A program made the translations under genes and the position numbers. Under the pieces are notes generated by a model, which saw nothing but the letters and a program-made list of their open reading frames with translations, was not told the DNA's origin and ran no database searches. Shown one piece after another: positions 20,721-49,561 of a DNA stretch of 64,000 nt (its first letter is position 1; every line of letters begins with the position of its first letter). The stretch comes from Enterobacter phage phiT5282EW, in the sequence record PQ352032.1. The stretch is one strand, 5' to 3'.

Positions 20721-20749
20721 ATATTATTACGTCATGGGTGACGTGTCAA
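20721..20749 (-). promoter_or_regulatory. sigma70-type promoter of the conserved ACGTCA-box family (d)
   Basis: On the minus strand: TTGACA-CGTCACCCATGACGTAA-TAATAT. The -35 overlaps the stop codon of the upstream gene. Confidence 0.6.
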
Positions 20750-21111
20750 CGGGTCGGCACCACTTCTACGCCACCGTTGTAGTAGTCGCAGCGCACCCAC
20801 ATCTGAACATCCGGCCTGAACAGCGTCGGGCGCTGGGTTCGCCATACCTGCCACGCCCCTGACTCACCTTTTGCGTAAATTTCCAGCTGCCCTACTTCGA
20901 CCGTTGGCAGGTCACAGGCACGCATCCAGCGATAGTGCGGCTTGGTGCGACGGATTGATGGCCCGACCGCAGTATGCCAGTGGCGCAGCTGGCCCTGCGT
21001 CAGATGCTTGGGCCATTGAGGAAAGTTTGGGTTAACGTAACCCGGATCCAGCTGGCGCAGGCTCTCGTTATACGCCGCCTCGCCCAGAGTCATCGCTTTA
21101 GCTCGGCTCAT
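20746..21111 (-). CDS. hypothetical protein
   Basis: Start moved to the ATG (MSRAKA...) that abuts the stop of the upstream gene. Confidence 0.45.
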   Translation of the reverse strand: MSRAKAMTLGEAAYNESLRQLDPGYVNPNFPQWPKHLTQGQLRHWHTAVGPSIRRTKPHYRWMRACDLPTVEVGQLEIYAKGESGAWQVWRTQRPTLFRPDVQMWVRCDYYNGGVEVVPTR

Positions 21112-21112
21112 A

Positions 21113-21421
21113 TCAGTACGTCCTGAATCCGTTGCAGTTGCGCAGGAAGTCCACAAAGTCGGCCTTAAATGCTTTGGCCCGGTCGGCTTCGGAACTGAAC
21201 CAGCCCGGCGTCGGCTCCCATGCTTCGATGATGTCAGCCATCTTGCCAGCCGTGCGCGGAGAGACCACCCACGGGTCAGTTGTTTTGCGCTGCTCTACCT
21301 GCGGCAGCTTCGCCATGCCCGGCAGAAATACCAGCGTCCACCATGTACCATTGGCGATGTCATAGCCCGGCAGGCGGTTCTCGTCGCCTTTACGGCGGCG
21401 GTCTTCGATAGAAATGGTCAT
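21113..21421 (-). CDS. hypothetical protein
   Basis: 102-aa ORF. Confidence 0.45.
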   Translation of the reverse strand: MTISIEDRRRKGDENRLPGYDIANGTWWTLVFLPGMAKLPQVEQRKTTDPWVVSPRTAGKMADIIEAWEPTPGWFSSEADRAKAFKADFVDFLRNCNGFRTY

Positions 21422-21681
21422 ACAGATTTACCCCCCGTGTAATCAGCCACTACCTTCCCGTTGTTGTCGTAATACTTGATCTGATACATCGGGTGGCAAT
21501 TGTGTTTGTGTTTCCCATATTTCAGCTGGTTGGCAAAAACCACATCCAGATTGGCGCTGCCGTTCATCCCGGCGATGGTGCCGATATCGCCGGAGACCTC
21601 AACCATCATCCCCAGTTTGGCGAACGTGATCCCACGCGTGCGGGCCATGTCTTCTTCGAACTGCTTCGCCTTACTCACCAT
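21418..21681 (-). CDS. hypothetical protein
   Basis: Start at internal ATG (MVSKAKQFEE). Confidence 0.4.
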   Translation of the reverse strand: MVSKAKQFEEDMARTRGITFAKLGMMVEVSGDIGTIAGMNGSANLDVVFANQLKYGKHKHNCHPMYQIKYYDNNGKVVADYTGGKSV

Positions 21682-22123
21682 CAGCCTGCTCCTTTGCTGG
21701 TTCGCGCAGGACACGGGCGTAATGCTCAGCGCGGGCGCAAATGTTGTTCATGCTGCTGCGCTCTTTGTCGAGCCAGTCAGCCTTGAATGCCGCCTTTTCT
21801 TCCTCAGGCAGGACGCTCAGGGCTTTCTCATATGCCCGGCGCTCAGCCATACTACCGATCAGGAATGACTCGAATACCTCAGCCAGCGCCTCTTTGTCGC
21901 ACTGCTCAAAGGACTCCCCGACCGTTTTACCGAAGGTCTTCTGGAAAAACTCCTCGGTGCCGCCAAACATGAACAGCGGGACTTTGCGAGGCTCAGTCTC
22001 AGTGTCGAGCTCAGTTGCGCCATACTGACCGCCCATGATGCCAACGGCGATAGCCGCGAGCTCATGCGTTGGTGCTTTAAAGGTGATTTTATCTGACAGG
22101 TTGATCAGCTCCCAGAGGCTCAT
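21671..22123 (-). CDS. hypothetical protein
   Basis: Start at ATG 22123 (MSLWELIN), with an ATGA overlap with the upstream gene. Confidence 0.45.
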   Translation of the reverse strand: MSLWELINLSDKITFKAPTHELAAIAVGIMGGQYGATELDTETEPRKVPLFMFGGTEEFFQKTFGKTVGESFEQCDKEALAEVFESFLIGSMAERRAYEKALSVLPEEEKAAFKADWLDKERSSMNNICARAEHYARVLREPAKEQADGE

Positions 22124-22416
22124 GATGCTGGCTCCTCTTTTGGTTTGCCTTCGAACTTCTTGCCGCAGAATGGGCAATAATTCATCGTCATAAACGAACT
22201 GCCATCAGTGCAGCGCTGAGCCAGCGAGCCATCTTTCTTGCGCTTGAGAAAGCGGAAGGTGTAAGGCACGGTGACGCTGGAGTGGTCGCCATCAGCCAGG
22301 ACAAACACGCTGTTTGTCCAGTTGGCTTCTTCGATCTCTCCAATTTGATCGCCAAAGCGCTTGGTCAGGTGCTCTTTGAACTGAGCCCCCAGCTTTTTGA
22401 AACAATCACAGGCCAT
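22120..22416 (-). CDS. zinc-ribbon protein
   Basis: 98 aa with CDC...CPFCG cysteine pairs. Confidence 0.5.
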   Translation of the reverse strand: MACDCFKKLGAQFKEHLTKRFGDQIGEIEEANWTNSVFVLADGDHSSVTVPYTFRFLKRKKDGSLAQRCTDGSSFMTMNYCPFCGKKFEGKPKEEPAS

Positions 22417-22492
22417 CAGGAATCCTTTTAGGGTTGGTTAAATAACCCGTAACGCACCGCGCTACGGGGCTTTATTGCTTGATGCGTGGTTG

Positions 22493-22520
22493 ATGATACG
22501 TTATGCGTGACGTAATGCAA
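22493..22520 (-). promoter_or_regulatory. sigma70-type promoter, ACGTCA-box family (b)
   Basis: Minus strand: TTGCAT-TACGTCACGCATAACG-TATCAT. A second TTGACT...ACGTCAG copy lies just upstream (22525-22556). Confidence 0.55.
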
Positions 22521-22552
22521 GCATTATTTACGCCACTGCTGACGTATGTAGT

Positions 22553-22574
22553 CAAAAAAGGCCCCGTAGGGCCT
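22553..22574 (-). terminator. rho-independent terminator after 473-aa gene
   Basis: GGCCC-CGTA-GGGCC hairpin followed by U6 on the minus strand. Confidence 0.6.
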
Positions 22575-22661
22575 TCGGTTACTTACTGTAAACGGGGCTC
22601 AGACCATGATCTGAGTGCCCGTGTCCTGCTCCCCCGGTCGGGGCATTCCATACCGGGGCTT

Positions 22662-24083
22662 TCACTTTGGGGCAGTGGTAGGCTTCGGCTCCACTGACGC
22701 TGGTTTGCCTGGCTGATTGCGGATCGTGGTAGCCAGTGCGCCCGGTCGCGTCGCAAAGTAGGTATAACGCCATTTTCCGGTCTGGGCCTCCCAGTATTTC
22801 ACGCGCCAGCCTGAGTCCTGATCCTCCCACTCCTCAGAGTAATACGCGGGCTTGGCATCGTTATCAGCATTACGCTGCGCGATAGCTGCGGCCTCTCCGG
22901 TCGGCTTCCAGCCGTGCAGGTTGATCTCATCACCTCCACGGTTCTGGATGTGGCGCTGGTATTCAGCGAGAAGGGTGTCCTCAATCTTCGCCAGCTCAGC
23001 GGTTGCCTTACGGCCTGCTGCCGTGCAGTAGAAGTGTGTCAGCTGCTCATAGCGATCAAAGCCGTTTGTCATGTTCAGGAACACGCGGGCCTTTTTGTCG
23101 TACATCAGCTGGAGGTGCGGCTCCATCCATCCCTGCGTCGGGCGTTCTTTCAGGTGGATGTGATACTCAGCCATTTCTGTCCGGTCATGCGGGATCACAT
23201 CCAGACGGTACAGGTAGCCCTGACGCCAGCAGCGCTTGTCAGTGCGCAGGGTACCATCGCTCAGCTCCTCCTCCGCGAGCTCCAGACGCTTCTCGCTGCC
23301 CGGCTTCACATCTGACAGGCCCAGCGAAACACGGCGGTGGACTTCCGCGATCATGCGCTGCGTCGTGTAATGGGGTTGCAGGGTGATGACCAGACCGCTG
23401 ATTTTGGCACGCAGCGGGGCCAGCGGGTGCAAGCGCTTCACCACGTCCTCAATGGTTTCATCGCGCTGCTGCAAATGCAGCTGCCCGGACTCCAGCGGCT
23501 CGTAATCATCAGGGGCGGCGTGATCCAGCGTCAGCGCATCGACGGTCTTACCTTGCATCATACGCATCCCATGGCCCAGCTGCGGGGCGCGTACCTCCTG
23601 CACCAAATCCATGACTTCTTTCTGGCGTTCTGTCAGCTCAGGCTCCTCAACAGCGCGGGCCATCAGCTTTTGCAGATCTGGCGTTGGGTCTGCTGGCGAG
23701 TTCAGCACTTCCTGAGGCACGACCGGACGCGTACCACGGCCCGCTAATTGCACCCAAGGCTCACCGCCAGCAGGGAATCGGTCATTCAGATTGAGCACGT
23801 ACTCAGCGTGGGCGAAGGCATCAGCCAGAGTCATTACCGGATCGATGTGGATGGTCTTGCCGTCATAAATCAGGTCAATGGGTTGGTTTTCGGCGACGGC
23901 ACGGCCTACGGCATTCAGGAGCGCTTCACCTTCTTCGGCATGGAGTTGAGGCACTTCTTGCTGCTGGGCTTTTACCATTTCCAGACAGGACATAAACGAC
24001 TCAGCTTTTGCCTCAGTAAACTTCTCATTGTGCAGGGCGTTAAATACAGCAACAGCGCGGGCAATAACGGATAATTTCGACAT
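22662..24083 (-). CDS. hypothetical protein (473 aa)
   Basis: Long clean ORF with no recognisable motif. Confidence 0.55.
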   Translation of the reverse strand: MSKLSVIARAVAVFNALHNEKFTEAKAESFMSCLEMVKAQQQEVPQLHAEEGEALLNAVGRAVAENQPIDLIYDGKTIHIDPVMTLADAFAHAEYVLNLNDRFPAGGEPWVQLAGRGTRPVVPQEVLNSPADPTPDLQKLMARAVEEPELTERQKEVMDLVQEVRAPQLGHGMRMMQGKTVDALTLDHAAPDDYEPLESGQLHLQQRDETIEDVVKRLHPLAPLRAKISGLVITLQPHYTTQRMIAEVHRRVSLGLSDVKPGSEKRLELAEEELSDGTLRTDKRCWRQGYLYRLDVIPHDRTEMAEYHIHLKERPTQGWMEPHLQLMYDKKARVFLNMTNGFDRYEQLTHFYCTAAGRKATAELAKIEDTLLAEYQRHIQNRGGDEINLHGWKPTGEAAAIAQRNADNDAKPAYYSEEWEDQDSGWRVKYWEAQTGKWRYTYFATRPGALATTIRNQPGKPASVEPKPTTAPK

Positions 24084-24102
24084 TAAAGCATCCTTTGTTT
24101 AA

Positions 24103-24504
24103 TTAACTTTCTTGAAACAGCTTGTTGATTTCCAGCATTGCGGTACGGATAAAATCGCAGTGCGCTTTATTTCTTACGAGACTTACGTTATTCCGGCGTT
24201 CTAACTTCTTGGCTACCTCCATCACTAATTTCAGGCTCTCCGCGTTTGCATTAATCTCGCATTCGCGTTCTGCGGTGATCTCTGCCCACTTCTGGCCTAC
24301 CGGGCGAACATGACGGCGCTCATAACGGTTTCCGCCCTCATACTCCCCGTTATGTTTGTAAAACTTCACGCCAGCCACAACGAACGTGTTTTTATAGACA
24401 CGATCAACGGTTATTTTGCGGTACACGTTGAATGTGTGTGAGCCGGGAACATCCACGCGCTCAGTAATTAAAACAACATCACCTTTCTTAACATTCTCGA
24501 ACAT
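24103..24504 (-). CDS. hypothetical protein (133 aa)
   Basis: ORF preceded by a leader hairpin that contains its GGAGGA SD. Confidence 0.5.
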   Translation of the reverse strand: MFENVKKGDVVLITERVDVPGSHTFNVYRKITVDRVYKNTFVVAGVKFYKHNGEYEGGNRYERRHVRPVGQKWAEITAERECEINANAESLKLVMEVAKKLERRNNVSLVRNKAHCDFIRTAMLEINKLFQES

Positions 24505-24532
24505 AAAAAAAGTCCTCCGCTTGTGGGGAGGA
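24499..24532 (-). promoter_or_regulatory. 5' leader hairpin plus U-tract (attenuator or SD-sequestering structure)
   Basis: Minus strand: AGUCCUCC-CCACAAGC-GGAGGACU followed by U7, ending at the ATG. The only SD (GGAGGA) is inside the stem. Confidence 0.45.
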
Positions 24533-24562
24533 CTTTAGCGCGTTATCTTTTTTGACGCAAGA

Positions 24563-24591
24563 ATTATTTACGGCATACGTGACGCATCAAA
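24563..24591 (-). promoter_or_regulatory. sigma70-type promoter, ACGTCA-box family (e)
   Basis: Minus strand: TTTGAT-GCGTCACGTATGCCGTA-AATAAT. The -35 overlaps the stop of the methyltransferase gene. Confidence 0.5.
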
Positions 24592-26098
24592 AGGCATCGT
24601 CATCTTCATCAGGATCCGGCAGGTGCCGATCCTCGGTCTCCTCCGGGAATTCCTCTCCGGTGTAGAAGTGGACGGCCTTGCGCCCGGTAAGGTTCTGCCA
24701 GCGACGAATCGCCACATCTGCGAATCCCAGATCCAGCTCCATCACGCGTGCGCATACGCCCATTCGCTCGGCGGCCACCAGTGAAGTACCAGAGCCGGAG
24801 AAGGGATCCACCATGATGTCATTGAGGCGCACGGTGTTCTTCATCATGCGCTCCCACAGCTCCACGGGCTTCTGCGTCGGGTGCAGGTCGCTGCGGTCAG
24901 GACGCGGCACGCTGACCACGCTGCCCAGCATTGACTCCACCTTGGCGTCGCCTTCCACCCGCATGATGAGATCGCCGTACTGGAAATACCAGTTACCCTC
25001 GGCATCCTGTTTGAATGGGCTTGAGTCGCCAAACTCCGCGACGGTCGTTTGCTTCCTGCCACCGTGCCAGCGGTGCTTGGCACCCTTGCGCCAGCCGTAC
25101 AGGATTGGTTCATGGATGCTTTGGAAGTCAGCCATGCCCAGTGTCATGCTGTTCTTCTTCCAGATGACATTCTGGGAGAAGTGGAAACCGACCTTTTCAA
25201 ACGCCCAGCGCAGGCCATGGGCCATCTTGTCGGAGTGGCTGATATAGGTCACGCCGCCCGGCTGCATCGCGTCATAGGCGCAGCTCAGGACATTGACGAG
25301 GAACTGATTAAAGTCCTCCTCGTTTTTCCAGTCGTTAGCGATCCCGCCAGTGCGCGAGCGCTCGCCTCCGATGGCCTTATCCATGCGCTTATTCTTCTTG
25401 CCCACATCGACGTTATACGGGGGATCGGTCAGCATCATGTTGGCCTTCTCGCCCTGCATCAGCGCCAGCCAGCTTTCCGGCTGCTCAGCATCGCCAACAT
25501 ACAGGCGATGAGCGCCCAGCACCCACAAGTCGCCCGGACGGCTCTTTGGCTCATCCGGCAGCGGGGGCGCATCATCAGGATCGCTGTCACCTCCTCCTCC
25601 CTCCATCGGCGGCAGCTTCATGATCTCGTCCAGCTGCTCAGGGTCGAAGCCGATAACATCCAGATCGTAGTCCAGATCAGCCAGGGCATTCATTTCGATG
25701 CGCAGCATGTCCATGTTCCACTCGGACGCCCGGCCCAGCTGGTTATCCGCGATGATGTACGCGCGGCGCTTAGCCTCATCCCAGCCAGTGCAGTCCAGCG
25801 TCGGCACCATGCCAATAGGGATCGGCGTGCCATCCGGGAAAGCGATTTGCTTGCCCTCGCTGTACAGCTTCATCGCTGCCAGCTGGCGTCCATGACCGGC
25901 CACGATCCCCTGCTCATCGACGAGGATGGCGTTAGTCCACCCGAATTCAAGCATTGACGCGGCGACCTTCTGGACGTGCGCCGGGCTATGGTCGTTTGAG
26001 TTGTTCACGTAGGGGATGAGGCTATCAACCGGGCGCAGCCGGATCATCGGGGGGATCACGTCCAGCCCCAGCATCTTGTTAAAATCTTTATCAGCCAC
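24587..26098 (-). CDS. ParB-like nuclease domain fused to DNA (N6-adenine/N4-cytosine) methyltransferase
   Basis: N-terminal ParB-N-like region (ILVDEQGIVAGHGRQLAAMKL). Methyltransferase motif IV MLTDPPYNVDV and motif I VDPFSGSGTS. Confidence 0.8.
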   Translation of the reverse strand: MADKDFNKMLGLDVIPPMIRLRPVDSLIPYVNNSNDHSPAHVQKVAASMLEFGWTNAILVDEQGIVAGHGRQLAAMKLYSEGKQIAFPDGTPIPIGMVPTLDCTGWDEAKRRAYIIADNQLGRASEWNMDMLRIEMNALADLDYDLDVIGFDPEQLDEIMKLPPMEGGGGDSDPDDAPPLPDEPKSRPGDLWVLGAHRLYVGDAEQPESWLALMQGEKANMMLTDPPYNVDVGKKNKRMDKAIGGERSRTGGIANDWKNEEDFNQFLVNVLSCAYDAMQPGGVTYISHSDKMAHGLRWAFEKVGFHFSQNVIWKKNSMTLGMADFQSIHEPILYGWRKGAKHRWHGGRKQTTVAEFGDSSPFKQDAEGNWYFQYGDLIMRVEGDAKVESMLGSVVSVPRPDRSDLHPTQKPVELWERMMKNTVRLNDIMVDPFSGSGTSLVAAERMGVCARVMELDLGFADVAIRRWQNLTGRKAVHFYTGEEFPEETEDRHLPDPDEDDDAF

Positions 26099-31731: not shown

Positions 31732-31761
31732 CGTTCACTCCTTACGTCATCAACGCCGTTG

Positions 31762-31789
31762 ATAATACATCATTTAAGCAGCGGCGCAA
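31762..31789 (-). promoter_or_regulatory. sigma70-type promoter
   Basis: Minus strand: TTGCGC-16-TATTAT, immediately after the terminator U-tract. Confidence 0.45.
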
Positions 31790-31831: not shown

Positions 31832-32143
31832 TTACAGGTGAGTATCAAGCCCGGTCAGGCTGGTAAATACCTCAGCCAGCTCAGGGGCGTGGACGCCATC
31901 GGTAACAGAGATTTCTTTCACGTTCATGCCCCGGATTTTGTAAGCGGTGATTTTGTACTCATCCATTGGGGTGAGGACGATGTGCAGACGGCTGATACCG
32001 TCACGCACGTAATGCGGTGTTTTTGGCAGGTCGAATTGCAGGCCGGATTTGATGGCAACAAAGTTTTTCGCGCCAGTCATGGTGATGAAGCGACGACCAC
32101 CTATCTGGCTCAGGATGGTTTCTGCGATTTCTTTGTTAGTCAT
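31832..32143 (-). CDS. hypothetical protein
   Basis: 103-aa ORF downstream of conserved promoter a. Confidence 0.5.
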   Translation of the reverse strand: MTNKEIAETILSQIGGRRFITMTGAKNFVAIKSGLQFDLPKTPHYVRDGISRLHIVLTPMDEYKITAYKIRGMNVKEISVTDGVHAPELAEVFTSLTGLDTHL

Positions 32144-32188: not shown

Positions 32189-32217
32189 ATATTACGTCAT
32201 CCGTGACGTAACTGCAA
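32189..32217 (-). promoter_or_regulatory. sigma70-type promoter, ACGTCA-box family (a), with inverted repeat TTACGTCA-N4-TGACGTAA
   Basis: Minus strand: TTGCAG-TTACGTCACGGATGACG-TAATAT. Confidence 0.6.
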
Positions 32218-32224: not shown

Positions 32225-32758
32225 TTATCCGCGTGATTTGAACGGATTCATGTAGCAGACGTACTGATACGGCCTGCGTCCCTCCCCGTTCCTCAGCTTC
32301 CAGCCAAGGTAAAGCCTGAATGTCCGACCGCAGAATGGTGCGATGATATACAGATTCCAGTAGATGCCTGAGGTAACAAACAGCCAGCCATCAATAACCG
32401 GGTTGGTGTTGTTGATCTTCCGGTTTCCGCGCCAGATGAATGGCTCACCCGGTTCATGCGCAGCCAGCACGCTCAGCGCGAATCCATACACCGGGTTACG
32501 CCAGCACCAGCCAATGCGGCCCACGTAGGTAGCCAGTACCGGGGGCAGCTTAAACCGCCATTGCCAGTGCTCACGCTTCCAGCCACCGTCACCATCCATC
32601 GAATTATCCGGCGTCTGGAACCACCAGAGCCAGTTAGGTAGCCAGCCATCCTTGCTGCAAAACAGCACGACCACCGGGGCCAGCACATACGCTACCAGTA
32701 CGCTGAGTAAATTTAACGGGGCCAGAATTAGCCACCATAAGACGCCGATTAACCACAT
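32225..32758 (-). CDS. Trp-rich membrane protein
   Basis: 177 aa with an N-terminal hydrophobic helix, LLSVLVAYVLAPVVVLF. Confidence 0.5.
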   Translation of the reverse strand: MWLIGVLWWLILAPLNLLSVLVAYVLAPVVVLFCSKDGWLPNWLWWFQTPDNSMDGDGGWKREHWQWRFKLPPVLATYVGRIGWCWRNPVYGFALSVLAAHEPGEPFIWRGNRKINNTNPVIDGWLFVTSGIYWNLYIIAPFCGRTFRLYLGWKLRNGEGRRPYQYVCYMNPFKSRG

Positions 32759-34918: not shown

Positions 34919-35281
34919 TTATCTGGTTTGCTTTGAGTGTTCGAGCTCGGCAAGTGCCTCACTCATCTTTTCGAGTGCTTCAATCATCTGCCCGCTGGCT
35001 GACAGTGGGCCACGCGTGCTGGCCTGTTCTGTCAGCAGCTTGCAGGCATCAACAACCTTCCTGATAGCTGGCAGGGAGCCCATAGACAGCATCTGCATGA
35101 AATAGAACTCCCCCGGCATGATGGTTGACAGCATTTCGCCGCTGCCTGCCGGATCTCTGCGGCCCTCCTCCTTGCGCTGGTAATTGCGAAGGGTATGGCC
35201 CAGCAGGTCAGCCATTGCCTGCTGCGTCATGCCTGCGGCAATGCGGGCCTCACGTACTTCTGCCCCGGTGATTTTAATCAT
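34919..35281 (-). CDS. XRE/Cro-type HTH transcriptional regulator
   Basis: TGAEVREARIAAGMTQQAMADLLGHTLRNYQRKEEG helix-turn-helix. Confidence 0.6.
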   Translation of the reverse strand: MIKITGAEVREARIAAGMTQQAMADLLGHTLRNYQRKEEGRRDPAGSGEMLSTIMPGEFYFMQMLSMGSLPAIRKVVDACKLLTEQASTRGPLSASGQMIEALEKMSEALAELEHSKQTR

Positions 35282-35327
35282 TGATGTTTCCTGCTTAGTT
35301 CAAAGGTACGGCAAGTGTAGCACGTCA

Positions 35328-35798
35328 TCACTGACGCAATCCAGCATTCTGGTAATTCGCATACTTGGCGTCGGTTGCCATTTCATCCAGCATCGTCCGC
35401 AGGCCGCTGACGCCGTGACGCATGATCCCGAAATGAAGGGCAGCGTGCAGGAATACATCGGCGTTGTTGTCGCCTTGGCGATTGACGCGGGGGATGATGG
35501 TCTTGCTGTTAGACATCCCGGTATCGACGGGGATGATGACCTGCCCGCCCAGCTGGGGAGCACGCTCGCCCGGCAGCATATCGCGCAGCCAGCGCTTGCA
35601 CGCGATGGCCTGCTCCAGCGCCTTCTCAGCCGTGCGGTGCTCGCTGACGGTGACGGCGTGGCACAGCGCCCCGTTAACCATGCCGGACAGGATGACGCGA
35701 CGGCCTTTAGTCGCCACAATCAGATCCGCGTAACCTTCGGCCTTGGCCTGCTTCACGCACGCGGCGAGGTGGTGTTTGCTTGGTGCGCTCTTAGCCAT
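35328..35798 (-). CDS. hypothetical protein (Rossmann-like?)
   Basis: 156 aa. The stop codon lies inside an ACGTCATCACTGACG motif. Confidence 0.45.
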   Translation of the reverse strand: MAKSAPSKHHLAACVKQAKAEGYADLIVATKGRRVILSGMVNGALCHAVTVSEHRTAEKALEQAIACKRWLRDMLPGERAPQLGGQVIIPVDTGMSNSKTIIPRVNRQGDNNADVFLHAALHFGIMRHGVSGLRTMLDEMATDAKYANYQNAGLRQ

Positions 35799-36082: not shown

Positions 36083-36628
36083 TTACTCCTCAGTTGGGTT
36101 GAACTCTTTAAACAGATCTTTGCGCTTGGCTTCTGCCCATTCGCCAGCCTCAGCCGCTGAGGCAAATCCGTTTTGTCGGTGGCGAACTTTCTCAAATCTT
36201 ACCTCCGCATTCCAGCTACCTCGGCGCTTGTCGAAAGTCACACCTCGGAATCCAGAGGTGTTTTTTGCGTGCGTCTTGGTGTTGGCCCTGTTTTGCGACT
36301 GGGTAGCACGCCGCAGGTTTTCAAAGGCGTTATCGTGGCGAATCCTGTTCTTATGGTCGATATGTAGGAGCCACTCGCCAGTTTTGAAGTACCACGCCAG
36401 CGTATGTCCATATAGGGCCTTTCCTCGGTAGCCGATAGTCACATACCCGGTGACGTTATGGATATGCCCGGCGACCTCGCCTGCCTTCACCTGCCGACGC
36501 TTCTGGTCTACTAACCAAACGAAAACGCCTGAGGTCTCGTCATAGCTCAGGACAGAGGTCAACTCAGATAACGGAAAAGGGGCCGAAGCCCCTTTAGTTT
36601 GGATGGCATTACCATCCATAGGAAACAC
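36083..36628 (-). CDS. HNH homing endonuclease with AP2 DNA-binding domain
   Basis: HIDHKNRIRHDNAFENL (HNH) and SGFRGVTFDKRRGSWNAEVRF (AP2). Confidence 0.7.
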   Translation of the reverse strand: MFPMDGNAIQTKGASAPFPLSELTSVLSYDETSGVFVWLVDQKRRQVKAGEVAGHIHNVTGYVTIGYRGKALYGHTLAWYFKTGEWLLHIDHKNRIRHDNAFENLRRATQSQNRANTKTHAKNTSGFRGVTFDKRRGSWNAEVRFEKVRHRQNGFASAAEAGEWAEAKRKDLFKEFNPTEE

Positions 36629-37946
36629 CTGCCCCGATCACAAAGTTATGCTGGGTGTCGTTTGACACGGACGCCTTAACAACGGTGTTCTGTGAAGCGC
36701 GGGCAGAGAAGCCCACAGCCAGCGCAGACTCGCCATCAGTGTTACCAGCGCCAGCGCCGATAGCAAAGGTCTGGTGCTCCAGTACCTGCGGGATGTTAGC
36801 CATGGCGGCGACGCCTGCGATACCAGCCGACGCACGTTTGCGGTTGTCATCGATCTGCTTGTTCAGGTCGGCAAACTTGCTATTGGTCTGCGATTCCAGC
36901 CCCTGAATGCGCTGCTCATGGTTGGCAATATCGGCGGTGTTCTGGGCTACACGCTTATTGGTCGCATCCAGAGCCTGACGGTTCGCCTCAGAGTGGGCAT
37001 ACGCTGCATCAGCGCGAGACTGCGCATACGCGCCAGTGTCCTGCGCCTGTTTCACGCCAGCGCTCAGCGTGGTGAACTGGCTTGAGCGGGTGGAGGTCTC
37101 AGCCGCCAGAGCGGAATCCTGACGCTGCTGGTCTACAGCAAAATCAGCCTGGTTGACTTTGGTCGCCAGAGAATTGGTGTTGCTGGTAATGCGCAGGTCA
37201 TGGTCAGCCAGTGCCGCATCATGCTGCTGGTCGGCAGCTTTGCGGTCATTGGTCTCATTGGTAAGAGCCACGCCGTTACCCACTACGCCAGCCAGAGCCG
37301 CATCGGATTTGGTGTTGCTTTCAGTGATCGCGGTGTCCTGACGGGCCTGATCCGCTACAAAGTCAGTCGCATTGACTTTGGTCGCCAGACCAGCATCCAG
37401 CTCCGGCTTGGTGGCAAAGGTTCCAGCCTTAGTTTGCAGGTCGATGATGGCAGAGCCATTGGTGGCTACGCCTGCCAGTGCGGCATCCGCTTTATCACTA
37501 TTCGTGGAGATCAGTGCATCCTGATCGTTGTCGCGGACTGACTGCGCGGCCTTATCGGCATCATACGCGGTCTGGTCTACCTTACCAGTCAGACCATTCA
37601 ATGCCGCCTGCGCATCGGTCTTGGCAGAGCCTGCCAGATTCAAAGCAGAGCTCGCTTCCTGCTGTGCGGCGTCCGCTTTCTGGTCAACGGCGATCACACC
37701 CAGCTTGGTGCTTTGCAGGTCGGCATCCACACTGGTGATGCGGTCGCCAAGTTGAGTATCGCGGGTTTCAGAGTCCAGCTTGTTCTGGGTGATTTGGTTC
37801 TGGTGATCGTTGATCAGGTTGCTGGTTGCATTTGCGCGGGCGTCCTGAATGCGGTCATATGCAGACGGGGACGGATTCGGAGAAGCAATCGCTGCGGAGG
37901 TGGTAGCAGTAAAGGTCAGAGCGATAGCCAGCTTGGTCAGTTTCAT
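36609..37946 (-). CDS. trimeric autotransporter adhesin, YadA/Eib-like
   Basis: Signal peptide MKLTKLAIALTFTATTSAAIA. Long coiled-coil stalk with repeats (TKVNATDFVADQARQD / TKVNQADFAVDQQRQD). C-terminal YadA-type beta-barrel anchor ending ...FVIGAGVSYGW. Confidence 0.75.
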   Translation of the reverse strand: MKLTKLAIALTFTATTSAAIASPNPSPSAYDRIQDARANATSNLINDHQNQITQNKLDSETRDTQLGDRITSVDADLQSTKLGVIAVDQKADAAQQEASSALNLAGSAKTDAQAALNGLTGKVDQTAYDADKAAQSVRDNDQDALISTNSDKADAALAGVATNGSAIIDLQTKAGTFATKPELDAGLATKVNATDFVADQARQDTAITESNTKSDAALAGVVGNGVALTNETNDRKAADQQHDAALADHDLRITSNTNSLATKVNQADFAVDQQRQDSALAAETSTRSSQFTTLSAGVKQAQDTGAYAQSRADAAYAHSEANRQALDATNKRVAQNTADIANHEQRIQGLESQTNSKFADLNKQIDDNRKRASAGIAGVAAMANIPQVLEHQTFAIGAGAGNTDGESALAVGFSARASQNTVVKASVSNDTQHNFVIGAGVSYGW

Positions 37947-38000: not shown

Positions 38001-38029
38001 ACTATACGGCACGCATGACGCGTCCGCAA
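38001..38029 (-). promoter_or_regulatory. sigma70-type promoter, ACGTCA-box family (h), drives autotransporter gene
   Basis: Minus strand: TTGCGG-ACGCGTCATGCGTGCCG-TATAGT. Confidence 0.5.
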
Positions 38030-40804: not shown

Positions 40805-40878
40805 AAGCCTACTCCAGCAGGAATGGTCATCGTTGGAATCCTTGGGTAATGTGCCGGGCGGTGTGCCCGGCCTTGATG

Positions 40879-40908
40879 AGACAATAGCTGATTGTTTACG
40901 TCATGTAA
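40879..40908 (-). promoter_or_regulatory. possible promoter with TTACGTCA box (f)
   Basis: Minus strand: TTTACA-TGACGTAAACAATCAGC-TATTGT. Weaker match than the other family members. Confidence 0.3.
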
Positions 40909-40915
40909 AGCGTAA

Positions 40916-41455
40916 TTATTTGGCGCGTGTCAAAACTGCGCTGTAAGTGGTCATCGGGTGGATCTCGTAACAGCCATTGCAGAGCAGATGATGGTTGGTC
41001 ATGTGCAGATACCCGCAGCCATTGCAGCGCCATACATCAGCAGTCAGTGCATTGGTGCCACCCTCCCGCAGCCAGAGCGGTACGGCGGCGATCCGGTTGT
41101 GCAGCTCGCCAGCCTCCTCACAGCACTCGTTGTGCGCCATCGCCTCATTGCGCATGTCTTCCTCGGAACCAACGCAGCTCTCGGAGTAGTAAACCTTTCC
41201 GGTGTCCACGTACATCAGGCCCCACGTAAACGGCTCATTGCGGTCGGCAGCAGTGCAACGAGCCGCAAGCGCCTCGGCTTCCTCGGCAATGCGCTCGGCG
41301 TTTTTCAGGTGCTCGGATTTCGCGCGGGGTTTCAGCAGCTCCTCAGCGGCGTCCCGGTCGAAACCGGGCATCGCTGGCAGGCGGGCCACGACATCAGCAG
41401 GCAGGGCATCGATCCAGTCCAGCGCAGCGCGTGCTACATCGGCGGCAGTTTTCAT
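40916..41455 (-). CDS. hypothetical Cys-rich protein
   Basis: Start at ATG 41455 (MKTAADV), overlapping the upstream stop. Confidence 0.45.
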   Translation of the reverse strand: MKTAADVARAALDWIDALPADVVARLPAMPGFDRDAAEELLKPRAKSEHLKNAERIAEEAEALAARCTAADRNEPFTWGLMYVDTGKVYYSESCVGSEEDMRNEAMAHNECCEEAGELHNRIAAVPLWLREGGTNALTADVWRCNGCGYLHMTNHHLLCNGCYEIHPMTTYSAVLTRAK

Positions 41456-44497: not shown

Positions 44498-44580
44498 GAT
44501 GGGCTCCTTTTGAGTGAGCCCCCACGATACAGCGTCTTACGGTTAATCGCAACGCATTTTTGCGGCAATCAGGACGTAAA

Positions 44581-45467: not shown

Positions 45468-45529
45468 GAGAAAAATCTCACCCGTTCGGCTTAGTCGAGC
45501 AGAGTATAGCGCTTTTTTGCGGTGATGGA

Positions 45530-45920
45530 AGCCGTGACAGCGTGGTACAGCTTGTTACAGTGCGAAAAATGCAAACTGTCACAGAAAAAAGGCCCGACAG
45601 AGCTACATAAATAAATAAATAAATATAAATAAATTAGTTAGTTATAGTTAGTTAGTAGTATGTGTCATTGTGGTGCTGTGACAGTGTTACAGTTGTGACA
45701 GTAAATCTATACCATTACGCGACTCATTTTATCTCTCTCTTTATACATATATATTCATTATTATAATTGGGCTATTTTTCTTAACTCCTCTATATCCCCC
45801 TCGCATTTTTACTGTCACACTGTCACAGCTACTCTGCAAGCCGCGCCATTACTGGATTTTTGCCGTTACACATGCACTGTAACGCGCTGTGACATGTGAC
45901 AGAAAAACCGTCACACGGGT
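45530..45920. repeat. AT-rich iteron region: >12 copies of GT(G/C/T)ACAG / CTGTNAC plus (AAAT)n and (TAGTTA)n microsatellites
   Basis: Examples: ctgtcacag, ctgtgacag, ttgtgacag, actgtcacactgtcacag, gctgtgacatgtgacag. aaataaataaataaatataaataaa then ttagttagttatagttagttagtagta at 45607-45660. No ORF. Confidence 0.7.
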
Positions 45921-45921
45921 A

Positions 45922-45944
45922 TAAAAAAAGCCGCTTGCGCGGCT
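45922..45944 (-). terminator. rho-independent terminator
   Basis: GCCGC-TTGC-GCGGC hairpin followed by U7 on the minus strand, downstream of the 45963-46412 gene. Confidence 0.6.
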
Positions 45945-45962
45945 TATTGGGTATATACATTA

Positions 45963-46412
45963 TCAGAAATAAGAGTCTTCCGGGTCGTCGGCATTAATTT
46001 CGTTTTTCAGCGCCCGGAGGTGCGATTCCATATCAGTTATTTTATCTGATATGGCGTCGGCTTTAGATTCCCCTACCGCCGCACTCATTTCCATCGCCAG
46101 TTTCCACCCGGCGAAAGCTCCGCGCATCCACTGATCGACATAGCCGCCTTTTTCATCCAGCTGGAAGTTTGGCTCTTTGCCGCTGCCCGCCATCTTGTCG
46201 CGCACCATATCCTCGAACCGCTCACGCGAGGCGTAAGAGGGCCAGTCGGTATGCGGTGGCAGCTTTTTGCTGCTGGTGTAGATGCGGTTGCCGAAAATGG
46301 CTGCGCCCCGGTTAATGAGCGGGTACACGTTCGGCTGCTGAATGCCAATATCGCGGGCAAATGCAGCCTTATTCCCCTGGTAAAACACGTTGATATATTT
46401 CAGCAAATTCAT
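45963..46412 (-). CDS. HTH (Cro/antirepressor-like) DNA-binding protein
   Basis: NKAAFARDIGIQQPNVYPLINRG helix-turn-helix. 149 aa. Confidence 0.5.
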   Translation of the reverse strand: MNLLKYINVFYQGNKAAFARDIGIQQPNVYPLINRGAAIFGNRIYTSSKKLPPHTDWPSYASRERFEDMVRDKMAGSGKEPNFQLDEKGGYVDQWMRGAFAGWKLAMEMSAAVGESKADAISDKITDMESHLRALKNEINADDPEDSYF

Positions 46413-46413
46413 T

Positions 46414-46614
46414 TTACTTCCTCAGGATAAACGCCCGGAACACGGGCCAAAACAGAATGTCGAACAGCAGCCAGAACAGGGCCAGCCCCACACCCAGCCA
46501 CCACAGATCGCGCTGCTGGCTGGCATCGAAAATCATAAACGCCGGGATAAAGAGCAGGCCGAAGCAAATCAGCACGCTCAGCAGCTCACAGGCGCGGTTG
46601 ATTGCCTTAATCAC
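46414..46614 (-). CDS. small membrane protein
   Basis: 66 aa with 2 TM segments. Confidence 0.45.
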   Translation of the reverse strand: MIKAINRACELLSVLICFGLLFIPAFMIFDASQQRDLWWLGVGLALFWLLFDILFWPVFRAFILRK

Positions 46615-47011
46615 CGTATCGCCCCCCGTTATACGTTGCGCCTTTCGGCAGGACGGTGCAGGACTCGGTTTTGTAGCTATGCACGCTGCGGTCGTAATGC
46701 GGAATGCTGGCGGTCAGCTTGGCGCACTCGCGCTCGGCGTCGGCGGGATCCGTGAACACTGCCAGCAGGGTATCGCAGGCATCATCGTTACCGTAGTCCG
46801 TGTGGAAATACAGCGCGGTGGCCGGAATGACTTCTGCCATGATTGCCGGGCGTGCAGCCGCCAGAAGGCGCAGGCAATCCGGGCAGGTCACTTCACCATC
46901 TGCCACCTCATGCTTGGCGCGGAATGACTTCCAGCCGCACAGGGTCACAGTGGTGCCCATGCCCTCGGTGTAGAGGTGATTGAGGTTATTGGTCATCTGG
47001 ATGACTTTCAT
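46607..47011 (-). CDS. zinc-ribbon protein
   Basis: CGW...CPDC. 134 aa. Confidence 0.45.
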   Translation of the reverse strand: MKVIQMTNNLNHLYTEGMGTTVTLCGWKSFRAKHEVADGEVTCPDCLRLLAAARPAIMAEVIPATALYFHTDYGNDDACDTLLAVFTDPADAERECAKLTASIPHYDRSVHSYKTESCTVLPKGATYNGGRYGD

Positions 47012-47262
47012 GATTTCATGCCTTTCAGGTTATCGCGCAGGCCCAGAGCAGCGCCCAGCGTCAGACTAAACAGGACGGCGAACAGAGCGCCGACCATTAC
47101 CATGCCGGGCGCGGAATCGCTGCCATCGTACCCGGTAGCGCCTACCCAGAAGCCGCCCAGAGCCAGCACCGCAAACAACGCAGTAAAGAAGCGGGCCATG
47201 CTGTAAAGCTCACGAATTTTTTCCACGTTATTCTCCTTTATAGAACTCGTTAACCACATCAA
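47008..47262 (-). CDS. small membrane protein
   Basis: 84 aa with 2 TM segments. Confidence 0.45.
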   Translation of the reverse strand: MMWLTSSIKENNVEKIRELYSMARFFTALFAVLALGGFWVGATGYDGSDSAPGMVMVGALFAVLFSLTLGAALGLRDNLKGMKS

Positions 47263-47848
47263 TTTTGCAGTGCTGCTCTACCTCGCGCAGCTGCTGCTTG
47301 TAGCGTGCAGGCATTCCGTCTTTCATGCGGTGCCATTTCAGATCGGTGAGCAGGCTATACCACTGCCCGCCACACTCGACGAATTGCCCGGCATCGCACG
47401 CATAGCGGGTGCCTTCAATCAGGTAATACTGCGGCGTTTTCTCGCCTTTCGCCGGGTCGCCCAGCTTGGTGGCCCGTGCAGGCGATTTGCCGTAGCCGAC
47501 CGCCGCAATGCAGCGTCGGGTCAGGTGATCAGCGGCAGGATACCAGTACCCGTCATCGTGCAGTTTCAGCGGGTGCGCCTGCGGGTCATCCGGGATCAGG
47601 AAAGCATCACCGTGATAGTTGTACATGGTGCCGAAAACGGCAGGCGTGGTTGGCTCGCGGTCGGCAATGAAGCGCTTAACCTTGAAGCCTTCCATCACGT
47701 CAGGCGTAACGCCGTGGCGTGCGCAGATGTCAGCCAGCGCAGCCTCAGCCTCAGCGCGGAACGAATCAAACGCGGCATCCGGCAGGCGAACCATCACCCA
47801 GTCTATTGCCTCAGCAGCCGGGCCAGTGAGCAGAGTGTATTTGGACAT
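47228..47848 (-). CDS. hypothetical protein
   Basis: 206-aa ORF. Confidence 0.5.
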   Translation of the reverse strand: MSKYTLLTGPAAEAIDWVMVRLPDAAFDSFRAEAEAALADICARHGVTPDVMEGFKVKRFIADREPTTPAVFGTMYNYHGDAFLIPDDPQAHPLKLHDDGYWYPAADHLTRRCIAAVGYGKSPARATKLGDPAKGEKTPQYYLIEGTRYACDAGQFVECGGQWYSLLTDLKWHRMKDGMPARYKQQLREVEQHCKIDVVNEFYKGE

Positions 47849-47850
47849 AA

Positions 47851-48126
47851 TTAAAATCCTCCTGGTGCATTAGCAACGCGTTTCAGATGGTCGCGGTATT
47901 GCGCTTTGGTTTCGGTCATCAGCTCAGCCGGGACTTTCTTAATCAGGGTGAATTGTTCCCCGACCGTGTTGTAACAGATGAAGCCGATCCCGTGGGAGCC
48001 GTCACCAAACTGGCGACCTGACACGCGCACGGCGATGCGGTCATTCTTGCCATTGGTGGCTTGCACCATTGCTTTTTTGAGGATATCAGCGAAGGCTTTC
48101 GCCTCCGCACCTGATAAAGTTTTCAT
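47851..48126 (-). CDS. hypothetical protein
   Basis: 91-aa ORF. Confidence 0.45.
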   Translation of the reverse strand: MKTLSGAEAKAFADILKKAMVQATNGKNDRIAVRVSGRQFGDGSHGIGFICYNTVGEQFTLIKKVPAELMTETKAQYRDHLKRVANAPGGF

Positions 48127-48587
48127 TAGCGATCCCCCTCATGGGTAGCATCTTCAATCTCGCGGAGGCTTTTGCCTTCCGCCATCGCTTTGGCCTGCCA
48201 GTAGTCGAGGCACCCCATACGCGCTTCCATTTCGTCTTGCAGCGCCTGATCCTGCCAGCCTGCATTCTCCAGATGGCGCTCATATGCCGCGTCCGGGTTG
48301 CCATGGTCAGCGAACTGCTCATACAGGTGGTCTTCGGTCTCTTTCTTCCACTCGGTAAAAGAGGCCAGCGCCGCGTTGAGCATCACCGGAGAGTTGGAGA
48401 AGAACAGCGCCTTTTTCTCGGTGCGCTCAGCGCTGCCAGTCAGGGCCCAGCGCAGCACAACCACTTTGCCTTCACCGCCGATTTCGACGATCAGGTTATG
48501 CGCCGGGGAAACCATGATCAGCTCGGTTAACAGCAGCTCAAATTCGGCCTTGGTCATGCGCGGTGCGGTGCGTTTTATGTTGTTCAT
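48126..48587 (-). CDS. hypothetical protein
   Basis: Start at ATG 48587 (MNNIKR), downstream of promoter g. The track start lies inside the promoter. Confidence 0.45.
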   Translation of the reverse strand: MNNIKRTAPRMTKAEFELLLTELIMVSPAHNLIVEIGGEGKVVVLRWALTGSAERTEKKALFFSNSPVMLNAALASFTEWKKETEDHLYEQFADHGNPDAAYERHLENAGWQDQALQDEMEARMGCLDYWQAKAMAEGKSLREIEDATHEGDR

Positions 48588-48621
48588 GTCGTTTATCTCG
48601 TTACCTTGGGTTGGTGAAAAG

Positions 48622-48650
48622 ATAATACGACATAGCTGACGTATATGCAA
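48622..48650 (-). promoter_or_regulatory. sigma70-type promoter, ACGTCA-box family (g)
   Basis: Minus strand: TTGCAT-ATACGTCAGCTATGTCG-TATTAT. Confidence 0.55.
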
Positions 48651-48714
48651 TTATATATACGCAAAAAAGAGAAAATATTTTTTAGGGGCTCCAGAGTGAA
48701 GCCCCAAGGAGAGG

Positions 48715-49053
48715 TCAGTTACAGCGAACGGTGCCAAACGAATCGCGTCGGCAGGTGCTGCCATCGCTTCCCCGCGTCGTGCCGAAGCTGTCAGTGCGCC
48801 AGCTGTTTCCGTGGTTGTCACGGGTGGTGCCGAAGCTGTCCGTGCGGTACACGGAGCCATCGCTGCCGCGCGTGGTACCAAACGAATCGGTGCGCCAGCT
48901 ATTGCCATGGTTATCGCGCGTTGTCCCGAAGGAATCCGTGCGGTAGGTAGTGCCGTCATCACAGCGCGTGGTGCCGAAGGAATCAGAGCGGCAGGTCAGC
49001 GCGGAGGCGTTAAAGCTGGCGGCGAGCGCCAGCAGGAGGATCAGTTTTTTCAT
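48715..49053 (-). CDS. secreted tandem-repeat protein (7x ~14-aa RTDSFGTTR units)
   Basis: Signal peptide MKKLILLLALAASFNASA. Repeats of YRTDSFGTTRDNHGNSW / RTDSFGTTRGSDGSV. The DNA-level repeat unit is 42/84 nt. Confidence 0.55.
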   Translation of the reverse strand: MKKLILLLALAASFNASALTCRSDSFGTTRCDDGTTYRTDSFGTTRDNHGNSWRTDSFGTTRGSDGSVYRTDSFGTTRDNHGNSWRTDSFGTTRGSDGSTCRRDSFGTVRCN

Positions 49054-49460
49054 GCTTCGTTTACCTTTGCTACGTAAATTTCGTACCGTTCCGGGTCAAG
49101 CCCGTTAACGACCTTCATGGCGAGATCATGGCGACTGCTCCAGCCGATAGCGTTCCAGCTGTTACGCTTCTGCACCGCTTCCAGATGTGTCGCGTATTCA
49201 TCCTGGTATTGCTCAGCCGTCATGGCGCAGATGCGTTCTATTTCGGCCTTACCCAAGCTGTTTTGCTGCTCAGGGTGCGCCTTGCAGTGCTTTGCCCACG
49301 CGTAATTCGATTTAGCAGCCTTCACGTACTGGTCGCGGACGATCTCCCAGTGCTTAGCCTTGCCGCGAACCACGACAACAAATTTATAGTCGCGGTGAGT
49401 GGTGCGGGTAACAAGCAGACCATCAGGTGTGGTCGCGGTCAGTTTGCGTTTAGCTGGCAT
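49050..49460 (-). CDS. hypothetical protein
   Basis: 136-aa ORF. Confidence 0.5.
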   Translation of the reverse strand: MPAKRKLTATTPDGLLVTRTTHRDYKFVVVVRGKAKHWEIVRDQYVKAAKSNYAWAKHCKAHPEQQNSLGKAEIERICAMTAEQYQDEYATHLEAVQKRNSWNAIGWSSRHDLAMKVVNGLDPERYEIYVAKVNEA

Positions 49461-49533
49461 AATTAAGCCCCCATAGCTCTTTCGGAAACAGCCTAGCGAT
49501 TAAGCTGGGCCATAATATCGTGTTGATGAAATG

Positions 49534-49561
49534 ATTGTACGCCACTAGTGACGTAATGCAA
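49534..49561 (-). promoter_or_regulatory. sigma70-type promoter, ACGTCA-box family (c)
   Basis: Minus strand: TTGCAT-TACGTCACTAGTGGCG-TACAAT. Confidence 0.55.

Follow-up and report, generated by a model that had tools for sequence, protein, structure and literature searches.

A palindromic motif at promoters of the accessory gene block of Enterobacter phage phiT5282EW and a candidate phage-encoded regulator

Genome organization

A 64,000-nucleotide stretch of Enterobacter phage phiT5282EW (sequence record PQ352032.1; hereafter the window) contains a 20-bp palindrome, the dyad wT(A/G)CGTCA-N4-TGnCGTAw, that lies inside or beside sigma70-type promoters at 14 intergenic places between 10.6 and 50.5 kb. 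Its two 7-bp half-sites are separated by four free positions (7-4-7), with the half-site centres 11 bp apart. These places fall within a block of accessory genes of approximately 40 kb, which also encodes the candidate regulator, a 120-residue Xre-type helix-turn-helix (HTH) protein of the HTH_3 family (34919..35281, minus strand).

The source of the window is a virulent-looking myovirus with a genome of approximately 95 kb. Its nearest deposited relative, Escherichia phage ECML-606-1 (OL631484; complete genome 95 kb, with an annotation that is nearly all hypothetical), is 92.8% identical across 82% of the window's 20–40 kb region, and searches with the primase identify farther relatives in Yersinia phage fHe-Yen8-01, Aeromonas phage ST4, Morganella phage Mecenats66, Bordetella phage PHB04, and Pseudomonas phages Dolphis and Touem01. 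The family is one of myoviruses of ~90–95 kb that includes ECML-606-1, fHe-Yen8-01, Mecenats66, PHB04, and Dolphis. No sign of lysogeny was found in the searches made: no match is present in 5,426 complete E. coli genomes, plasmids contain a 3–4-kb fragment only (see below), and neither integrase nor partition genes were seen among the proteins scanned.

Comparison with the annotated Yersinia phage fHe-Yen8-01, together with PHROG scans, provides the layout of the window. The genes for the portal (885-2639), the large terminase (4306-6921), and a tail fibre (6965-9805) lie at the left, followed by that for a 2257-residue virion protein with an Alt-like ADP-ribosyltransferase domain (11989-18762), and the primase (53919-56825) and helicase (58043-59773) genes are at the right. 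Approximately 70 genes, mostly small, are transcribed leftward on the minus strand from about 50.1 down to 9.9 kb. The accessory block encodes DNA methyltransferases, including a ParB-methyltransferase (24587-26098), a protein with a ParE-like toxin domain, a YadA-like receptor-binding protein (36609-37946), and the giant Alt-like ADP-ribosyltransferase.

The dyad motif

The dyad is a real motif, and no other specific signal in the window's non-coding DNA is as prominent. With up to two mismatches allowed, the 17-nucleotide sequence ACGTCANNNNTGNCGTA has 33 strand matches (the two strands being counted separately) where 3.15 are expected, and the maximum in shuffled sequences is nine. A 21-nucleotide weight matrix built from nine sites identifies 13 places scoring at least 16 bits, all of them intergenic, compared with 0.1 in dinucleotide shuffles. 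The hexamer TACGTC/GACGTA is the most enriched of those intergenic hexamers that are not A/T-rich, and 11 of its 23 occurrences fall within 9% of the sequence.

Motif discovery in the intergenic regions, a check proposed with the original prediction, also bears this out. Unseeded expectation-maximisation across all 34 intergenic segments, initiated at every third 20-mer of the intergenic DNA and run against an intergenic background with a limit on the number of sites, converges on TTACGTCAnnnnTGACGTAA (19.3 bits), with 34 strand matches at approximately 17 places. Without the intergenic background and site limit the procedure converged on A/T-rich low-complexity sequence. Matches at 606-634 (two of the expectation-maximisation places) and at 7944-7964 lie in coding sequence, have low scores, and were treated as chance. 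A count of exact dyads (a 5-mer, a gap, and its reverse complement) was too strict and missed the motif.

The motif recurs in the complete genome of ECML-606-1, where 13 dyads score at least 12 bits. All are between 45.6 and 84.7 kb, the counterpart of window positions 10.6–50.5 kb, and there are none in the structural and replication modules; the expected recurrence elsewhere in the genome is thus confined to the accessory block. A scan of IMG/VR for the perfect palindrome returned 11 loci, one of which (L014) is a true relative. The other ten are unrelated single matches that have no protein in common with the window except SSB.

Promoters and dyad sites

The original prediction described a class of near-identical promoters at eight places between 20,721 and 49,561, each with a −35 hexamer, an ACGTCA box directly after it, and a −10 hexamer. 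Reading of the sequence confirms these elements on the minus strand at all eight, but the class is larger, extending to 10.6 kb on the minus strand and to 50.43 kb on the plus strand, with additional dyads inside the original range at 31.75, 35.33, and 44.57 kb and two dyads, not one, at 22.5 kb. The box itself is the left half of the dyad and lies inside the spacer, except at promoter f, where the dyad overlaps the −35. An inverted repeat had been reported for promoters a and d only; the right half-site, TGnCGTA, is present in every copy, in degenerate form.

Twelve promoters with spacers of 16–17 nucleotides were read from the sequence, and hexamers resembling the TTGnnn/TAnnnT pattern lie upstream of a gene on the same strand. 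A separate promoter consensus scan recovers a, c, f, and the 10.6-kb promoter, and misses the TTGCAT-type −35 hexamers, which match the consensus at three of six positions. The sites described below are on the minus strand unless noted.

The leftmost promoter (P10.6, 10616..10644; TTGACC-17-TATTAT) is upstream of the open reading frame (ORF) at 10148-10579, and its dyad ATACGGCACGCATGACGTATT (10618-10638) covers the spacer and −10. Promoter a (20721..20749; TTGACA-17-TAATAT) has its dyad at 20726-20746, three nucleotides further upstream of the −10, and its −35 overlaps the stop codon of the ORF at 20746-21111. Promoter b (22493..22520; TTGCAT-16-TATCAT; dyad 22495-22515) is accompanied by a second dyad, b2 (22527..22555; dyad 22527-22547), 32 bp upstream of the first. 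Because the nearby TTGACT (22550-22555) would have a spacing of 19 or 21 nucleotides, which is poor for a promoter, b2 is probably an auxiliary operator.

Promoter c1 (24563..24590; TTGATG-16-AATAAT; dyad 24567-24587) has its −35 over the stop codon of the ParB-methyltransferase gene. Next to it is c2 (24509..24560; TTGCGT-17-TAAAGT), whose core contains no dyad and for which the centre of the c1 dyad is approximately 52 bp upstream of the predicted start. The c1/c2 architecture is also found in the Yersinia phage and in the related phage sequence L041.

At 31.75 kb (31742..31789) the promoter TTGCGC-16-TATTAT (31789-31762) is followed by a dyad, ACGGCGTTGATGACGTA (31743-31759), which lies past the −10 and overlaps a DUF7696 gene's Shine-Dalgarno sequence; this dyad is conserved in L019, L037, and L041. 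Promoter d (32189..32217; TTGCAG-17-TAATAT) has a perfect dyad, TTACGTCA-CGGA-TGACGTAA (32191-32211), and the promoter together with the genes at 31832-32143 and 32225-32758 is present in the window and in relative L040 and absent from ECML-606-1. The 35.33-kb dyad (35319..35339; TTGCGTCAGTGATGACGTGCT) lies 38 nucleotides ahead of the HTH_3 start codon. Promoter e (38001..38029; TTGCGG-17-TATAGT; dyad 38003-38023) precedes the YadA-like receptor-binding protein gene, and the transcription unit behind it extends to the HTH_3 gene.

At promoter f (40881..40916; TTTACA-17-TATTGT) the dyad (40896-40916) is over and upstream of the −35. The 44.57-kb site (44524..44580) consists of a dyad-like sequence (44560-44580) just upstream of TTGCGA-17-TATCGT (44552-44524), and is a better match to the motif in ECML-606-1 and L038–L040. 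Promoters g (48622..48650; TTGCAT-17-TATTAT; dyad 48624-48644) and h (49534..49561; TTGCAT-16-TACAAT; dyad 49536-49556) complete the minus-strand set, h being positioned right after a terminator. On the plus strand, the promoter at 50433..50461 (TTGCGC-17-TATTAT; dyad 50433-50453, six nucleotides upstream of the −10) heads a rightward operon that starts at 50489.

As originally described, several sites abut terminators or stop codons. Intrinsic terminator hairpins directly precede b2, h, g, e, and the 31.75-kb promoter, and the −35 hexamers of a and c overlap stop codons. A/T-rich tracts (AAATAAT and similar) lie upstream of the promoters. Hairpins are also found directly after two promoters. 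The one after promoter a (20696..20720) starts one nucleotide past the −10, carries the Shine-Dalgarno sequence AAGGTGAGG in its 3′ arm, and is followed by a U-run and then the ATG at 20690, and the c2 hairpin (24509-24536) likewise holds the Shine-Dalgarno sequence ahead of a U-run and ATG. Their predicted folding energies are −16.4 kcal/mol (z −5.8) and −15.2 kcal/mol (z −4.5), respectively.

The two hairpins begin 1–2 nucleotides past the −10 (with the 5′ arm at 24509-24536 overlapping it), and the same terminator-like layout is present in the Yersinia phage at 72.3, 76.9, and 85.6 kb and in L041 at 17.6 kb; the arm sequences vary among relatives and the pairing is kept. The leaders of many cassettes contain a C/A-rich motif, AACCCAACC(A)AGG, directly upstream of or inside the ribosome-binding region (20700-20712, 48600-48615, 22425-22440, and 40842-40852), which is also found in Yersinia phage leaders and could act as a translational enhancer or simply keep the leader unstructured.

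The dyad as a probable protein-binding site

Relatives of the region were collected from IMG/VR and public assemblies (L019/L020, L036–L040, and a plasmid locus, L018). Across eight related phage sequences the half-sites are retained and the central N4 and flanks vary. The orthologous dyads at promoter g, for example, are ATACGTCAGCTATGTCGTATT in the window and ACCCGTCACCCATGACGTATA in ECML-606-1, and at promoter e only the centre differs (TGCG to CCTG); at site c an IMG/VR relative has a different gene end upstream and a perfect dyad. Among 33 distinct sites from nine loci, positions C4, G5, C7, A8, T13, G14, C16, G17, T18, and A19 are near-invariant and the central N4 is free.

Similarity among the copies could in principle reflect shared ancestry, as in recently duplicated cassettes, or a hairpin formed in read-through transcripts or in DNA, since the copies share hexamers and box and the inverted repeat could pair as a 6–7-bp stem. 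However, the copies are unrelated outside the hexamers and half-sites, and the orthologues alter the N4 and flanks while retaining the half-sites. The variable pair 6/15 is T/A in 12 of the 33 sites, T/x in 13, x/A in six, and off at both positions in two, such that it is complementary in only 12 and no compensatory changes are seen. Either half-site may be degenerate, although both are imperfect in just two of the 33, and the G at position 3 has no matching base at position 18. The dyad is also upstream of its own promoter's predicted start. The lack of covariation at paired positions argues for a dimer site rather than a hairpin, and the explanation by ancestry or hairpin, which we regard as highly improbable, is largely refuted.

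A second alternative is that the box is contacted by RNA polymerase itself, or by a sigma-appropriating or activating factor in the manner of MotA or Lpa, and so defines a temporal promoter class. Six promoters do share an exact register in which the final TA of the dyad forms the first two bases of the −10 (−12/−11), GnCGTA ahead of the −10 is common to the Yersinia phage and L041, the dyad of c2 lies near −52, and the giant Alt-like ADP-ribosyltransferase of the virion could modify RNA polymerase. Elsewhere, however, the register changes: the dyad is three nucleotides further upstream in a, b2, and c, and six at 50.43 kb, with upstream shifts of 3, 6, and 13 nucleotides overall, a position over the −35 at f, and one downstream of the −10 at 31.75 kb. 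An element contacted by polymerase, or by a factor docked on it, would be expected to stay in place, unlike an operator that need only overlap the polymerase footprint, and the variable register therefore suggests a separate protein-binding operator and not a polymerase contact. Dyads are also present where there is no good promoter, at 35.33 kb and b2, and the symmetry of the dyad, with degeneracy tolerated in either half, is better explained by a free-standing dimer than by a polymerase-bound factor. The −35 hexamers are present and the spacing is a normal 16–17 nucleotides, not the over-long 19–20 of MerR-type promoters, and the dyad, 0–13 nucleotides upstream of register with one site downstream, does not behave as in MotA/AsiA-type promoters; given the spacers and the −35 hexamers, there is no need to invoke a MerR-like or a MotA-like mechanism. 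A polymerase-read element is thus improbable. The position of the box likewise weighs against the host-recognised extended −35 that had been offered originally as an alternative, the box being located from −1 to +4 nucleotides relative to the −35 and some sites lying over the −35 or past the −10.

From these sequence comparisons, the dyad is very probably the operator of a phage-encoded dimeric protein. The symmetry, half-site retention, absence of covariation, and variable register, together with the phyletic link described below, favor the originally proposed single promoter class under one regulator encoded in the window.

A candidate regulator

Four proteins had been nominated originally as HTH candidates, and one of these stands out. 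Pfam and PHROG scans of approximately 70 proteins of the block and its flanks reveal one clear DNA-binding domain inside the block, in the product of 34919-35281, which matches Pfam HTH_3 (PF01381; residues 6–45, E 4.1e-5, a marginal 24 bits against a cut-off of 23) and PHROG 955, a HTH DNA-binding protein, and has the recognition region GHTLRNYQRKE. Searches of solved-structure profiles with this protein give only marginal Xre matches (E ~0.06). Two of the other nominees have no HTH detectable by Pfam or PHROGs, and the fourth, the 113-residue product of 59828-60169 in the replication module, has weak HTH and NikA-like matches (E ~1e-3 to 7e-3).

Dyads are found upstream of the HTH_3 gene despite turnover of the surrounding sequence. 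There is one in the window, ECML-606-1, and L036, and there are two in tandem in L037 and L038–L040, which in L038–L040 frame a TTGCGT-18-TATCAT promoter; every window-type relative for which upstream DNA is available has such a dyad. The locus thus has the features of an Xre/Cro-type system: a HTH_3 domain, a dyad whose conserved half-sites flank a free centre at a distance of about one helical turn, overlap with core promoters, and a putative operator at the regulator's own gene.

The dyad and the HTH gene also occur together in more distant phages. Window-type phages have the helix LRNYQRKE and the dyad TACGTCA-N4-TGACGTA, with A8 in 33 of 33 sites and T13 in 30 of 33. Yersinia phage fHe-Yen8-01 has an orthologue with 36–38% identity and the helix LRAYQRKE, and its orthologous promoters carry CGTC-N6-GACG, placed relative to the −10 as in the window (three, versus 0.22 expected); one variant there, ACGTC-TAATCC-GACGTA, has the spacing and register of the window dyads and was found by reading, having been missed by the window weight matrix. 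L041 encodes an orthologue with 48% identity and the helix LRAYQRKE, and has four CGTC-N6-GACG dyads in the same register where 0.71 are expected. The inner A8 and T13 are kept in phages with Asn33 in the recognition helix and variable in the two Ala33 lineages. The first 45 kb of Mecenats66 contain no detected HTH orthologue, no CGTC-N6-GACG dyads (0.54 expected), and plain sigma70 promoters without the dyad.

These patterns are relevant to a third alternative, in which the dyad is bound by a host transcription factor found throughout the Enterobacterales and couples phage promoters to host physiology. The CGTC-N6-GACG core is common to phages whose hosts differ (E. coli, Yersinia, and the host of L041), and a 5-4-5 operator geometry occurs in some families of host regulators. 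Nonetheless, the inner dyad positions vary between lineages in step with the phage HTH helix, and Mecenats66, a family member that grows on another enterobacterium, has ordinary promoters without the dyad in the 45 kb covered. No E. coli regulator is known to us to have such a consensus, and nothing relevant was found in a full-text literature search for the half-sites with phage and operator terms. A host factor is likewise improbable, marginally more so than an element read by polymerase.

A fourth alternative retains a phage-encoded binder but assigns the role to another protein, either an ORFan of the block or the 59828-60169 product, with the HTH_3 gene being merely one more regulated gene. 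Most block proteins have no Pfam or PHROG assignment, many further genes sit behind dyads, and the 59828-60169 product, with its weak HTH matches, is conserved in the Yersinia phage (62%). However, that gene is part of the replication module, where the adjoining promoters have no dyad, and no second protein unites a recognisable DNA-binding domain, a dyad upstream of its own gene in every relative, and a matching phyletic distribution. We consider another phage protein unlikely, though less so than the two preceding alternatives.

Several points weigh against the HTH_3 protein as regulator. The link between HTH gene and dyad involves few independent lineages, and most of the close relatives were retrieved through the HTH gene itself; in the farther relatives L043–L045 no HTH orthologue is present in the flanks covered, and these contigs end too early for its absence to be shown. 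The comparative link is thus thin and only suggestive. There is no dyad directly upstream of the HTH orthologue in the Yersinia phage, and in the window the HTH_3 gene's own promoter, with a 14-nucleotide spacer, is probably a weak one. The protein's AlphaFold2 model is too poor to use (predicted local distance difference test score, pLDDT, of 57.5), and any of the numerous block ORFans could hide an unrecognised DNA-binding fold. Finally, at c2 and possibly b the dyad is approximately 52 bp upstream of the predicted start, a position that could suit an activator. On balance, the domain match, the dyads at the gene, the plasmid-borne operon described below, and the phyletic pattern tilt slightly toward the 34919-35281 product as the protein that binds the dyad.

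The intergenic regions of L043–L045, which are Logan/ENA contigs, contain GCTGAYGCTCTAA and further on the direct repeat TAGGGCGC-N3-TAGGGCGC, which suggests that this sub-lineage has a different regulator.

Other features of the window

The first gene behind promoter a (20472-20690) encodes a 72-residue protein with a ParE-like toxin domain (PF24732, E 1.8e-16), for which no obvious antitoxin partner was identified. In the product of 11989-18762 the Alt-like ADP-ribosyltransferase domain is C-terminal, and the Yersinia phage orthologue is annotated as particle-associated; the protein is reminiscent of the injected Alt of T4 or the DarB-sized capsid proteins of P1. The portal and terminase genes are separated by 1.1 kb, and this interval contains a tRNA-Asn (GTT) gene (3493-3568, plus strand) whose strand is opposite to theirs.

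The primase (53919-56825) shares only 60% protein identity with that of ECML-606-1 (88211-91096) and is flanked by the helicase and neighboring genes that are 99–100% identical, reflecting a sharp mosaic replacement. In a 490-nucleotide non-coding region (45470-45960), the 9-mer CTGTCACA/TGTGACAG occurs eight times or more, in both orientations and with additional CTGTAACA variants, around an A/T-rich core with TAGTTAGTTA and TAAATAAATA repeats. The Yersinia phage has a comparable A/T-rich repeat region at the same place (51947-52114), and the region looks like an iteron-type replication origin or some other regulatory hub.

At 60190-60266 (plus strand), two promoters in tandem, TTGCAG-17-TATCAC and TTGCAG-17-TAGAAT, face gene 59828-60169 with its weak HTH likeness, and the recombination and replication module probably has in them an autoregulated switch of its own. 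A promoter here (60238) had been regarded as related to the dyad class, but its half-site spacing differs and it is not among the weight-matrix matches of at least 9 bits listed; the two promoters (P1 and P2) have a single half-site or the wrong spacing and were not included.

Discussion

We have described a family of dyads associated with promoters throughout the accessory block of phiT5282EW and its relatives, and the arrangement is best interpreted, with rather better than even likelihood, as a Cro/C1-like phage repressor controlling insulated terminator-promoter accessory cassettes. With good hexamers, optimal spacing, and A/T-rich upstream tracts, the promoters would be used by host sigma70 RNA polymerase unaided. 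Each cassette of the ~40-kb block would be insulated, comprising a terminator, a promoter, a short leader, and genes. A dimer of a phage protein, most likely the 34919-35281 product, would bind the 7-4-7 operator T(A/G)CGTCA-N4-TGnCGTA, and because the operators cover the spacer and −10 of normally spaced promoters, the bound dimer is expected to exclude RNA polymerase at all cassettes together. The block would then be down-regulated in concert, the gene of the regulator included, as coordinated negative feedback or as shut-off. We infer operator binding, the identity of the binder, the direction of control, and its timing from these sequence patterns. Given binding, the position of the operators makes it likely that the HTH protein is mainly a repressor. 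The upstream dyad at c2, which has this placement in three lineages, would be compatible with an additional role in activation. Methylation of the ACGT cores is a further, purely conjectural, means of control, in view of the several methyltransferases encoded. The block need not be purely early, because it includes products annotated as particle-associated in fHe-Yen8-01, the giant ADP-ribosyltransferase among them.

The hairpins at a and c2 may reinforce this insulation. A transcript starting 6–8 nucleotides past the −10 would begin within the 5′ arm, such that the hairpin could not form and the ribosome site would be free. Read-through transcripts arriving from upstream would be terminated at the hairpin and have the Shine-Dalgarno sequence masked, so that each cassette would depend on its own operator-bearing promoter.

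The nearest architecture, by analogy, is that of phage P1, in which the C1 repressor has 22 operators dispersed in the phage genome (PMC8546580). Both involve one phage repressor (here a predicted one) with scattered operators in a ~94-kb myovirus, at the promoters of many units including its own. They differ in that the P1 operator is an asymmetric 17-bp sequence, ATTGCTCTAATAAATTT, whereas the window dyad is a 7-4-7 palindrome, and P1 is temperate, whereas this phage has no sign of lysogeny in the searches made. P1 C1 is also an unrelated and much larger protein outside the Xre type, and its role is to maintain a plasmid prophage.

In mechanism the closest counterparts are lambda Cro and CI, small HTH dimers with 17–20-bp operators that have conserved half-sites and a free centre and overlap the −35 and −10 of sigma70 promoters; they are autoregulated, and Cro turns down early transcription in lytic growth. 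The predicted likeness is that of a HTH dimer on pseudo-palindromic operators over sigma70 promoters. Lambda, however, has two operator clusters beside its repressor genes, whereas the window has no fewer than 14 putative operators, single or double, over 40 kb and no divergent repressor pair, and any sequence relationship of the candidate to lambda-type proteins is limited to the HTH_3 profile (24 bits) and structural matches at E ~0.06.

The KorA/KorB network of RK2 and that of R388 also place a short palindrome at the −10 of many backbone promoters and provide coordinated negative feedback, but these are plasmids with other protein families and operators, and the window has no partition or transfer context. 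T4 MotA/AsiA and P1 Lpa offer a further parallel, in that a phage-specific element next to sigma70 hexamers defines a co-regulated promoter class; those elements are activator sites at a fixed position that replace the −35, whereas here the −35 is kept, the position varies, and the dyad is symmetric.

Parts of the system are also found on plasmids. Small plasmids of Klebsiella and Enterobacter, and a KPC plasmid of E. coli (NZ_OQ821049; also AP022423 and AP022232), carry a phage-derived fragment with 75–77% DNA identity to the window. Promoter e and its dyad are present on the fragments from all three hosts; those on the E. coli KPC and Klebsiella plasmids span the YadA-like, HNH, and HTH genes, and the Enterobacter match stops before the HTH gene. 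In NZ_OQ821049 (L018, 38.4–41.1 kb) the 3–4-kb fragment includes promoter e with its dyad and the YadA-like, HNH, and HTH genes, the promoter e dyad is the sole strong site, and the operon ends with the HTH gene. This fragment is truncated by a Tn3-family transposase. One speculative and rather improbable interpretation is that the HTH protein and its operators constitute a portable module for immunity: repressor expressed from the plasmid would protect the bacterial host by silencing the dyad promoters of incoming related phages. In the phage, the protein would then shut down a 40-kb accessory arsenal, many products of which are packaged in virions. Because the Yersinia HTH orthologue is annotated as particle-associated, the regulator may also be injected together with the DNA.

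The motif itself appears to be unreported, as a full-text literature search did not find it together with phage or operator terms, and the family paper on Mecenats66 contains no promoter or regulatory analysis. The principle of control is a known one, and the general understanding of phage regulation is unchanged; what we describe is a new example in an unstudied phage family. For these phages, the dyad provides a transcription-unit map of the 40-kb accessory block together with a single candidate regulator. If the proposed pairing of operator and protein is true, the two could serve as a genetic part, being compact and orthogonal. The dyads also mark cassette boundaries, as with promoter d and its two genes, and this helps to explain how accessory genes may be exchanged among these phages under common control.

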